Assembly: GCF_054482595.1 (NCBI RefSeq)
Contig: NZ_CM137008.1
Length of the DNA: 64,000 nt
Reading direction: 5' to 3' (one strand)
Below the pieces are notes generated by a model. That model did not search any database and was not told where the DNA came from. It was given only the letters and a program-made list of their open reading frames with translations. Made by a program: the position numbers and the translations under genes. This document shows, piece by piece, positions 19,708 to 22,114 of the stretch (its first letter is position 1; every line of letters starts with the position of its first letter).

Positions 19708-21246
19708 ATGACCAACAATCCCCCTTCAGCACGTGTTCAGCCCGGCGAGTATGGTTTTCCTCTTAAGTTAAAAGCACGCTACGACAACTTTATTGGCGGC
19801 GAATGGGTAGCCCCTGCCGACGGCGAGTATTACCAGAACCTGACGCCGGTGACCGGGCAGCTGCTGTGCGAAGTGGCGTCTTCGGGCAAACGAGACATCG
19901 ATCTGGCGCTGGATGCTGCGCACAAAGTGAAAGATAAATGGGCGCACACCTCGGTGCAGGATCGTGCGGCGATTCTGTTTAAGATTGCCGATCGAATGGA
20001 ACAAAACCTCGAGCTGTTAGCGACAGCTGAAACCTGGGATAACGGCAAACCCATTCGCGAAACCAGTGCTGCGGATGTACCGCTGGCGATTGACCATTTC
20101 CGCTATTTCGCCTCGTGTATTCGGGCGCAGGAAGGTGGGATCAGTGAAGTTGATAGCGAAACCGTGGCCTATCATTTCCATGAACCGTTAGGCGTGGTGG
20201 GGCAGATTATCCCGTGGAACTTCCCGCTGCTGATGGCGAGCTGGAAAATGGCTCCCGCGCTGGCGGCGGGCAACTGTGTGGTGCTGAAACCCGCACGTCT
20301 TACCCCGCTTTCTGTACTGCTGCTAATGGAAATCGTCGGTGATTTACTGCCGCCGGGCGTGGTGAACGTGGTCAACGGTGCAGGTGGGGAAATTGGCGAA
20401 TATCTGGCGACCTCGAAACGCATCGCCAAAGTGGCGTTTACCGGCTCAACGGAAGTGGGCCAACAAATTATGCAATACGCAACGCAAAACATTATTCCGG
20501 TGACGCTGGAGCTGGGCGGTAAGTCGCCAAATATCTTCTTTGCTGATGTGATGGATGAAGAAGATGCCTTTTTCGATAAAGCGCTGGAAGGCTTTGCACT
20601 GTTTGCCTTTAACCAGGGCGAAGTTTGCACCTGTCCGAGTCGTGCCTTAGTGCAGGAGTCAATCTACGAACGCTTTATGGAACGCGCCATCCGCCGTGTC
20701 GAAAGCATTCGCAGCGGTAACCCACTCGACAGCGTGACGCAAATGGGTGCGCAGGTTTCTCACGGGCAACTGGAAACCATCCTCAACTACATTGATATCG
20801 GTAAAAAAGAGGGCGCAGACGTGCTCACCGGCGGGCGGCGCAAGCTGCTGGAAGGCGAACTGAAAGACGGCTACTACCTTGAACCGACGATTCTGTTTGG
20901 TCAGAACAATATGCGGGTGTTCCAGGAAGAGATTTTTGGCCCGGTGCTGGCGGTGACCACCTTCAAAACGATGGAAGAAGCGCTGGAGCTGGCGAACGAT
21001 ACGCAATATGGCCTGGGCGCAGGTGTCTGGAGCCGCAACGGTAATCTGGCCTATAAGATGGGGCGCGGCATTCAGGCCGGGCGCGTGTGGACCAACTGTT
21101 ATCACGCTTACCCGGCACATGCGGCGTTTGGCGGCTACAAACAATCAGGCATTGGACGCGAAACCCACAAGATGATGCTGGAGCATTACCAGCAAACCAA
21201 GTGCCTGCTGGTGAGCTACTCAGATAAACCGTTGGGGCTGTTCTGA
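19708..21246 (+). CDS. aldB: Aldehyde dehydrogenase B (NADP-dependent)
   Basis: Start placed at [17 protein letters not shown] after SD aaggag; 512 aa; ALDH catalytic-Cys region ([12 protein letters not shown]-like); the ORF-track upstream extension is unlikely. Confidence 0.9.
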
Positions 21247-21277
21247 TGTAAGAAGCTGGTCGCATCGGGTATTCATT

Positions 21278-21360
21278 GCCTGATGCGACGCTTACGCGTC
21301 TTATCATGCCTACGGGGACCTGACCGTAGGCCGGATAAGGCGTACACGCCGCATCCGGCA
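21278..21360. repeat. REP/BIME element downstream of aldB
   Basis: gcctgatgcgacgcttacgcgtcttatcatgcctacgg and ccgtaggccggataaggcgtacacgccgcatccggc, inverted REP units. Confidence 0.8.
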
Positions 21361-21790
21361 TAAACAAAGCGCACGTTGTTACAATTTACGTTTTAAACCT
21401 ACGTGTGCAATAACCCAGACTACGCCAACAAAAGTGCGTTTCTGGGGCGTGTTTTGCCAGGAGTTTAATCTCGCGTTTCGATGGTGAGCGGGCAAACCAG
21501 ACCGTAAATCACCATTGGTATTCCGAGGACAATCAGCAATAAACGGTAGATTATTGAAGGTTTAATACGCTTAATCTGCATTGTGGATGTTTTACGGTTT
21601 TTAATCATAAATTTGGCCAATAGTTCCATTATTTCAATATGATAAGCCTCGACCTGTTAAAAAGCCAGGCAGCACACTTCAGGAAGTATATAAAAAACAA
21701 TATGTCGTTATATAAATAAGGAAATTGCACTGCATCATGGCATTTCATAATATGCGTTAATTGTTCTTTTTTATATTCTCTGAGGGAAAT

Positions 21791-22114
21791 ATGTTCCTGG
21801 ACTATTTTGCACTGGGAGTGCTTATTTTTGTATTTCTGGTGATATTCTATGGGATTATTATTTTACATGATATTCCCTACCTGATTGCTAAAAAACGTAA
21901 TCATCCTCATGCCGACGCCATTCATGTTGCAGGTTGGGTGAGTCTTTTTACGTTACATGTTATCTGGCCGTTTTTGTGGATTTGGGCCACGCTTTACCGC
22001 CCGGAGCGGGGATGGGGAATGCAAAGCCATGATTCATCCGTTATGCAACTGCAACAGCGCATTGCCGGGCTGGAGAAACAGCTCGCCGACATCAAATCCT
22101 CTTCTGCCGAGTAA
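21791..22114 (+). CDS. yiaW: DUF3302-type small inner-membrane protein (paralogue of yibI)
   Basis: ATG at 21791 after SD gaggga (the track ORF starts at an upstream TTG); [23 protein letters not shown]...; about 80 percent nucleotide identity to yibI over the 5' region. Confidence 0.85.

Follow-up and report, generated by a model that had tools for sequence, protein, structure and literature searches.

Gene relics arise by deletion between short direct repeats, through replication slippage or RecA-independent deletion, and remnants left by slippage between such repeats are already known. AcrZ, MgtS, and YoaI are validated single-pass small membrane proteins of Escherichia coli, at most 50 aa in length, the synthesis of which has been shown experimentally (PMC11429745). 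Here we analyze a 47-codon open reading frame (ORF) located between aldB and yiaW in a window of 64,000 nucleotides (NCBI RefSeq assembly GCF_054482595.1, contig NZ_CM137008.1). A sequence-only reading had proposed this ORF as a candidate small membrane protein. The proposal is right in that the peptide is derived from coding sequence, is predicted to have one membrane helix, and is not a chance ORF, but it does not hold for an independent small-protein gene, as the ORF is an in-frame 57-codon deletion allele of a gene encoding a 104-aa protein. An origin by deletion is almost certain. We consider it probable that the ORF is a decaying gene relic, generated by an in-frame internal deletion mediated by repeats and no longer functional.

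The ORF and Its Genomic Setting

The window is from E. coli. The 401 bp around the ORF are 100% identical to strain XH990, as are 1,251 bp that extend from the 3' end of aldB into yiaV. Following the annotation of XH990, aldB (plus strand) ends at 21246, yiaW-yiaV (plus strand) start at 21791, and yiaU lies further on. The ORF and its TAA stop are at 21465..21608 on the minus strand, as defined by translation, PGAP annotation, and homology. The ORF is convergent with aldB and divergent from yiaW, and the location on the minus strand between the aldB/REP side and yiaW agrees with the earlier description. The reverse strand from 21608 (ATG ATT AAA AAC CGT AAA ... CGA GAT TAA) indeed translates to MIKNRKTSTMQIKRIKPSIIYRLLLIVLGIPMVIYGLVCPLTIETRD down to 21468, followed by TAA at 21467-21465, and the basic N-terminus and single hydrophobic segment ascribed to the product are borne out by Kyte-Doolittle 19-residue windows, which exceed 1.6 at starts 15-27. 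In the ORF listing, the same frame can be extended to an upstream in-frame ATG at 21629 for a product of 54 aa. REP-like sequence is present at ~21240-21365, and REP-type palindromic elements occupy 21277..21365 between the ORF and aldB. They lie outside of the gene, provide context only, and match Rfam naRNA4 on both strands with a score below the gathering score (E = 2.7e-5). Aside from one chance match with E = 0.99, the Rfam scan placed no family on the ORF.

Whether the ORF is unannotated depends on the record. The term is correct for the curated K-12 record NC_000913.3, in which the ORF corresponds to 3754611-3754754 on the plus strand, but not for RefSeq, where PGAP calls the same 144-nt ORF a "hypothetical protein" (WP_152936587.1 in XH990 and WP_001066080.1 in a K-12 MG1655 assembly). 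Most other sampled E. coli genomes also carry this call.

The length of the ORF by itself does not exceed chance, as 5 kb here contain 67 ORFs of 20 aa or more. Pfam and NCBIfam scans of the 47-aa protein gave no match, and its homologs in a word-indexed search of a 5.8-billion-protein collection are all from E. coli. These results, the abundance of short ORFs, and the lack of visible translation signals are what would be expected if the ORF had never been coding and had simply opened by chance in non-coding, AT-rich DNA between genes. It is homology to a longer conserved gene that sets the 47-codon ORF above chance.

A Parent Gene of 104 Codons

We searched the yiaW neighborhoods of GTDB species representatives with the peptide (tblastn) and with the intergenic DNA. 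In Escherichia whittamii, Escherichia sp. E1V33, Citrobacter amalonaticus, and E. coli 2020CK-00188, the peptide is matched in two pieces that are split by extra sequence. Each of these loci has one continuous 104-codon ORF in the same position and orientation, with the layout MNN..KRIKPSIIYRLLLIGLGTPMVIYGLVCG..(57 residues)..LWLYSLVRPLTIETRD. The ORF has a PGAP annotation in two E. coli strains, 2020CK-00188 and 6409. The ORF in the window consists of parent codons 1-39 joined in frame to codons 97-104. The retained 5' part (21492..21608, minus strand), delimited by tblastn, alignment, and the AlphaFold model, includes a variable N-terminus, a basic KRIK segment, and most of transmembrane helix 1. 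The retained 3' part (21465..21491, minus strand), delimited by alignment to full-length genes, includes codons 97-104 (PLTIETRD) and the stop.

The full-length gene is under strong purifying selection. Pairwise dN/dS among the E. coli, E. whittamii, E1V33, and C. amalonaticus alleles is 0.09-0.17. When restricted to the 47 retained codons, pN/pS between Escherichia species is 0.11-0.17, with E. coli and E. whittamii differing by four nonsynonymous and 12 synonymous changes. Codon-for-codon alignment to both ends of a gene that is present at the same locus in four other taxa, is constrained to this degree, and has 255 family representatives refutes a chance origin, which we regard as vanishingly improbable and effectively excluded.

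Decay of this gene has also occurred separately in Escherichia sp. MOD1-EC7003, where an independent deletion took away the 5' two-thirds (locus L008, ~2780-2900). The sequence at the break, CCTGTCATACTTCAAGTTGCATGTGCG, may resemble one end of an ERIC/IRU repeat.

Geometry of the Deletion

In full-length Escherichia alleles, direct repeats are located at codons 35-39 (TACGGCCTGGTTTGC) and codons 92-96 (TACAGCCTGGTTCGC). The two 15-bp repeats match at 13 of 15 bases, are in the same codon phase, and are 171 bp apart. The first specifies Y-G-L-V-C, within helix 1, and the second Y-S-L-V-R, where helix 2 ends. C. amalonaticus does not have the repeat. Comparison with full-length alleles places the deletion junction in the window at 21490..21506 (minus strand), where one hybrid copy of the repeat, TACGGTCTGGTTTGCCC, is left. 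A single hybrid copy in the window, relative to two copies in the full-length gene, is the signature of deletion between short direct repeats. The deletion is of 171 bases, or 57 codons (40-96), and is in frame. An in-frame product follows inevitably from the shared codon phase of the repeats.

We propose that an ancestral Escherichia gene, convergent with aldB, encoded an inner-membrane protein of 104 residues and that 171 bp were lost in the lineage of E. coli when the 15-bp imperfect repeats recombined or replication slipped between them. Along with the loop and helix 2, the loss would have taken all residues that are invariant or nearly so in the family. Since then, the remnant would have evolved at about a neutral rate, and it is now near-fixed in E. 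coli. We also considered the opposite polarity, in which 104-codon alleles are later insertions into an ancestral 47-codon gene. This is contradicted by the full-length genes of Citrobacter and Franconibacter and by a broad family of the same length.

Across 15 deleted alleles, there are three junction haplotypes in E. coli, GGT..TGC, GGC..TGC, and GGC..CGC, raising the possibility that the deletion might be recurrent. However, the junction and flank haplotypes of these 15 sequences are blurred by recombination among E. coli alleles. A separate patch at 21594-21602 (codons 3-5) has four substitutions in five bases (AACTCCAGT to AAAAACCGT). The patch is common to the window and strain 702/18 and is absent from O157, which is otherwise the closest allele to that of the window. 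From its sequence, the patch looks like a multi-nucleotide mutation or a short gene-conversion tract, and its distribution implies recombination within the locus.

The Protein Family of the Parent Gene

The parent gene belongs to an uncharacterized family of ~100-residue, two-helix membrane proteins for which neither Pfam nor NCBIfam has a model. When 1.84 billion cluster representatives were searched exhaustively with a profile, 255 relatives scored at E <= 1e-3, of which 66 reached E <= 1e-10. The majority are 100-125 aa in length and align with the profile from end to end. Named members are from Citrobacter, Franconibacter, and Pasteurella, and labels are all "hypothetical" or "inner membrane protein". 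An exhaustive HMM search was needed to recover the family, as a word-indexed search with the 47-aa and 104-aa queries returned Escherichia proteins only and missed the Citrobacter homolog. Pfam and NCBIfam scans of the 47-aa protein, the 104-aa protein, and 68 family members yielded sub-threshold noise only (DUF2784, bacteriorhodopsin, MgtE, and VMA21, as well as zinc ribbons on longer members). The UniRef name of one Franconibacter homolog refers to DUF3566, likewise a small bacterial transmembrane domain of function not known, but no scanned member matches that model even at E <= 1 to 10. Membership in DUF3566 is therefore unsupported here.

An AlphaFold model of the full-length protein, based on 50 family members (mean pLDDT of 84), has helices at 17-45 and 59-95, along with a small hairpin at 50-57 and a short strand at each terminus. 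A Foldseek search of this model against PDB found nothing below E = 0.78. The ancestral protein is predicted to have had this layout, beginning with the N-terminal strand and helix 17-45, followed by a beta-hairpin loop with a conserved W-N motif, helix 59-95, and the C-terminal strand. The full architecture of the family is defined by two long helices, the loop with the W-N motif, and a G-L-W-x-Y-S motif that ends helix 2.

The ORF in the window is homologous to the family profile through its alignment to codons 1-39 and 97-104, but it does not have the two-helix architecture, as residues 40-96 are absent. Related proteins of the 47-aa type in E. coli (P0002, P0017, and P0033) are matched by the family profile at positions 1-40 only. 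All of the invariant (G59, G88, and L89) and nearly invariant (G40, G46, W90, and S93) positions fall within the deleted segment. Because the loop, helix 2, and the invariant residues were deleted, the ancestral function is most likely lost. Purifying selection, seen in the full-length gene, is not seen in the remnant (12 nonsynonymous to six synonymous polymorphisms; see below).

The genomic contexts of family members point away from yiaWV. The Franconibacter ortholog is convergent with aldB and has no adjoining yiaW, and the Pasteurella homolog is located elsewhere. The aldB neighborhood, not yiaWV, is therefore the conserved enterobacterial partner of the gene. On the same contexts, we rejected a functional tie of the parent gene to yiaWV, which encode a DUF3302 protein and an HlyD-family protein.

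Evolution of the Remnant in E. coli

The locus is carried by ~3,800 of 5,426 complete E. coli genomes. Only 28 of the ~3,800 have the full-length gene and the remainder (~99%) have the 144-nt deleted allele. The 144 nt are uninterrupted in 3,805 of 3,813 genomes, a count that leaves frameshifts aside. Versions of the remnant with frameshifts, stop loss, small indels, or IS junctions are also found in public E. coli data.

To characterize polymorphism, 15 deleted alleles sampled across the range of identity were aligned with their flanks. The remnant has 12 nonsynonymous and six synonymous polymorphisms. In the same strains, the corresponding ratios are 3:20 in yiaW (Fisher p = 8e-4 relative to the remnant) and 2:36 in the 3' end of aldB (p = 2e-6). 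The ratio in the remnant also differs from the 4:12 observed across the same 47 codons of the full-length gene between species (p = 0.02). It is statistically compatible with the 75:25 division of sites that neutrality predicts (binomial p = 0.42), with a point estimate that is ~0.66 of the neutral ratio, somewhat below neutral. Segregating sites at the first, second, and third codon positions number 5/4/8 in the remnant, 4/1/18 in yiaW, and 1/0/35 in the 3' end of aldB. The allele in the window and an E. coli full-length allele are separated by 8.5 nonsynonymous and 2.5 synonymous changes, among them G27V and T30I in the helix. Amino acid changes in the remnant are thus accumulating at about the neutral rate with no detectable constraint.

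Conservation of the frame and codon-substitution patterns had been put forward as ways to evaluate the candidate. Related species keep the frame within the longer, 104-codon gene, and constraint on the 47-codon remnant in E. coli is relaxed. The 47-codon form is found in E. coli only, and neither its N:S ratio nor the distribution of its segregating sites is that of a conserved small ORF.

Alternatively, the remnant could be a functional small membrane protein, for example, a modulator of another membrane protein, that was retained or favored, with the deletion having spread as a consequence. We regard this as unlikely. The near-fixation of the deleted allele, in ~99% of E. coli genomes with the locus, is compatible with such a role, but if the deletion is old, near-fixation needs no selection. 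All 15 sampled alleles keep an intact frame. However, just 4.3% of point mutations create a stop, and the probability of observing zero stops among 18 mutations under neutrality is 0.46. Because stops are expected so rarely, intact frames are weak evidence for function, and the in-frame outcome of the deletion itself was set by the phase of the repeats rather than by selection. Residues 6-9, 11-26, and 31-38, which include the core of the helix, are invariant at the amino acid level among the 15 alleles, and this leaves room for residual constraint on the helix. Against this, non-conservative changes are present within the helix (G27V, T30I/S, and C39R), disrupted alleles exist, and the 12:6 ratio is statistically neutral and far from those of neighboring genes. 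The remnant retains the 5' region of its parent, on which selection acts in sister species, and PGAP calls the ORF a gene; both would fit a functional protein. The lack of a Shine-Dalgarno sequence or consensus promoter, and the absence of the whole segment from ~30% of E. coli genomes, speak against one. The three junction haplotypes could mean that the deletion occurred more than once. Selection need not be invoked for near-fixation, the intact frame, the invariant helix core of this small sample, or the junction haplotypes. A version of this scenario in which the deletion arose multiple times at the repeat, and the 47-residue peptide is still made from the signals of the parent gene and kept for a new membrane role, is in our judgment quite improbable.

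Expression Signals and the Intergenic Region

No Shine-Dalgarno sequence is visible upstream of either ATG (21608 and 21629), in agreement with the sequence-only reading, which had noted no strong one. A scan for consensus promoters and terminators found no sigma-70-type promoter on the strand of the ORF and no terminator. Within the literature collection searched, no paper linked yiaW with a small protein. The divergent intergenic region from the relic ORF to yiaW (21609..21790), defined by alignment and the promoter scan, is predicted to include the promoter and initiation signals of the parent gene. It is common to deleted and full-length alleles and, with pi = 0.054, is the part of the locus where nucleotide diversity is greatest. 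In C. amalonaticus, AGGA is located 6 nt upstream of the ATG. Full-length Escherichia alleles, which are under selection, share the same 5' region without a Shine-Dalgarno sequence. Missing canonical signals are therefore no proof that the remnant is untranslated. As the remnant keeps the 5' region of its parent, it is possibly still transcribed and translated at some level and may still be expressed as a single-pass membrane peptide on which selection has ceased to act.

Within this intergenic region, many Citrobacter species share, at 84-88% identity, a 50-bp AT-rich block that lies 56-105 bp upstream of yiaW (21686-21735), and the rest of the region is not alignable to Citrobacter. The block is probably the promoter of yiaW and/or an operator of the adjacent LysR-type regulator YiaU.

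The position of the ORF, 182 bp upstream of the divergent yiaW, and the conservation of a block upstream of yiaW into Citrobacter raise the question of whether the region is non-coding regulatory DNA or RNA for yiaW or aldB (a divergent promoter, an operator, or an antisense or 3'-end element), with the ORF being incidental. The conserved block is however outside of the ORF, and most Citrobacter loci with a retained yiaW contain nothing that corresponds to the region of the ORF. No Rfam family, terminator, or promoter motif is present within the ORF. We therefore consider a purely regulatory element to be highly improbable and effectively excluded.

Variation in the Neighborhood of the Locus

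Several observations on the neighborhood are reported in their own right. A hicA/hicB toxin-antitoxin pair is located between the full-length gene and aldB in E. coli 2020CK-00188 (locus L006, 2354-2966) and 15 other genomes. It is thus in 16 of the 28 genomes with the full-length gene and is seen only with the intact allele. The 3' end of hicB and the stop of the 104-codon gene share a 4-bp overlap.

Approximately 1,600 complete E. coli genomes (~30%; e.g., Ecol_732, locus L005) lack the whole yiaU-yiaV-yiaW-relic segment. In these, a frameshifted GH127 glycoside hydrolase gene, an MFS transporter gene, and a gene for an AraC-family regulator are beside aldB. A Fic-family gene is located between aldB and yiaY in O157:H7 (locus L003, 4681-5401) and Ecol_732 (locus L005, 6714-8009). 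No Fic gene is present in the window or in K-12, where the gap between yiaY and aldB is ~165 bp.

Insertion sequences are also associated with the locus. E. coli EC23HZZ201 (locus L091, 2616-3313) has an IS1A just upstream of yiaW and an IS1-associated loss of the sequence from there to selB, covering the relic, aldB, and yiaY. Several public protein variants read into IS ends at relic codons 5-12, a pattern in the sequences that suggests repeated IS insertion in this region. In E. coli HH194M (locus L096, 1-131), yiaV has an internal stop and is annotated as a pseudogene, implying that other genes of the segment also decay in some lineages.

Lastly, a second DUF3302 gene, with a product 72-76% identical to YiaW, is present in E. 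coli, Escherichia albertii, E. whittamii, and Citrobacter. It is presumably yibI, which adjoins the HlyD-family gene yibH. Neither of the two DUF3302/HlyD-family pairs has an obvious pump partner.

Implications

The main value of these findings is for annotation. A "hypothetical protein" in thousands of RefSeq E. coli genomes is explained as a deletion allele. Curators could label it as a truncated remnant and experimenters could give it a low rank. Screens for small ORFs will keep refinding the relic as a candidate small membrane protein, and it is likely to be a false positive. More generally, in-frame deletions mediated by repeats can yield small ORFs that look convincing.

The parent family merits attention in turn, being widespread, uncharacterized, and composed of two-helix proteins with no Pfam model. 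Rare strains of E. coli that keep the intact gene, such as 6409, provide a natural pair of intact and deleted alleles for functional work. Were the deletion recurrent and the peptide kept, the locus would document how truncation of a two-helix membrane protein can give rise to a bacterial microprotein, in a species where intact alleles still segregate and can be compared directly.

Comparison with Known Systems

Like AcrZ, MgtS, and YoaI, the product of the ORF is of similarly small size and has one hydrophobic helix with charged flanks. Unlike these proteins, the 47-mer is a predicted product, is restricted to E. coli, and evolves neutrally.

The closest relative is the full-length 104-aa protein (WP_001064340.1 of E. 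coli 6409; cluster P0195-P0208 of C. amalonaticus and C. farmeri), with which the ORF shares its locus, start codon, first 39 codons, and last eight codons. Across the retained part, identity is 83-95% to full-length proteins of E. coli and other Escherichia and ~55-60% to that of C. amalonaticus. Relative to the full-length protein, the allele in the window is without codons 40-96 and hence the loop hairpin, helix 2, and the invariant residues.

The locus is a new example of a remnant from slippage between direct repeats. As in other such relics, direct repeats flank the missing segment, a single copy is left, and constraint was relaxed afterward; here, the repeats match at 13 of 15 bases, the segment is 171 bp, and the copy left is a hybrid. 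It differs from them in that the deletion is in frame and the relic reads as a clean ORF with a transmembrane helix, which is why both the gene caller and the sequence-only reading took it for a small-protein gene.
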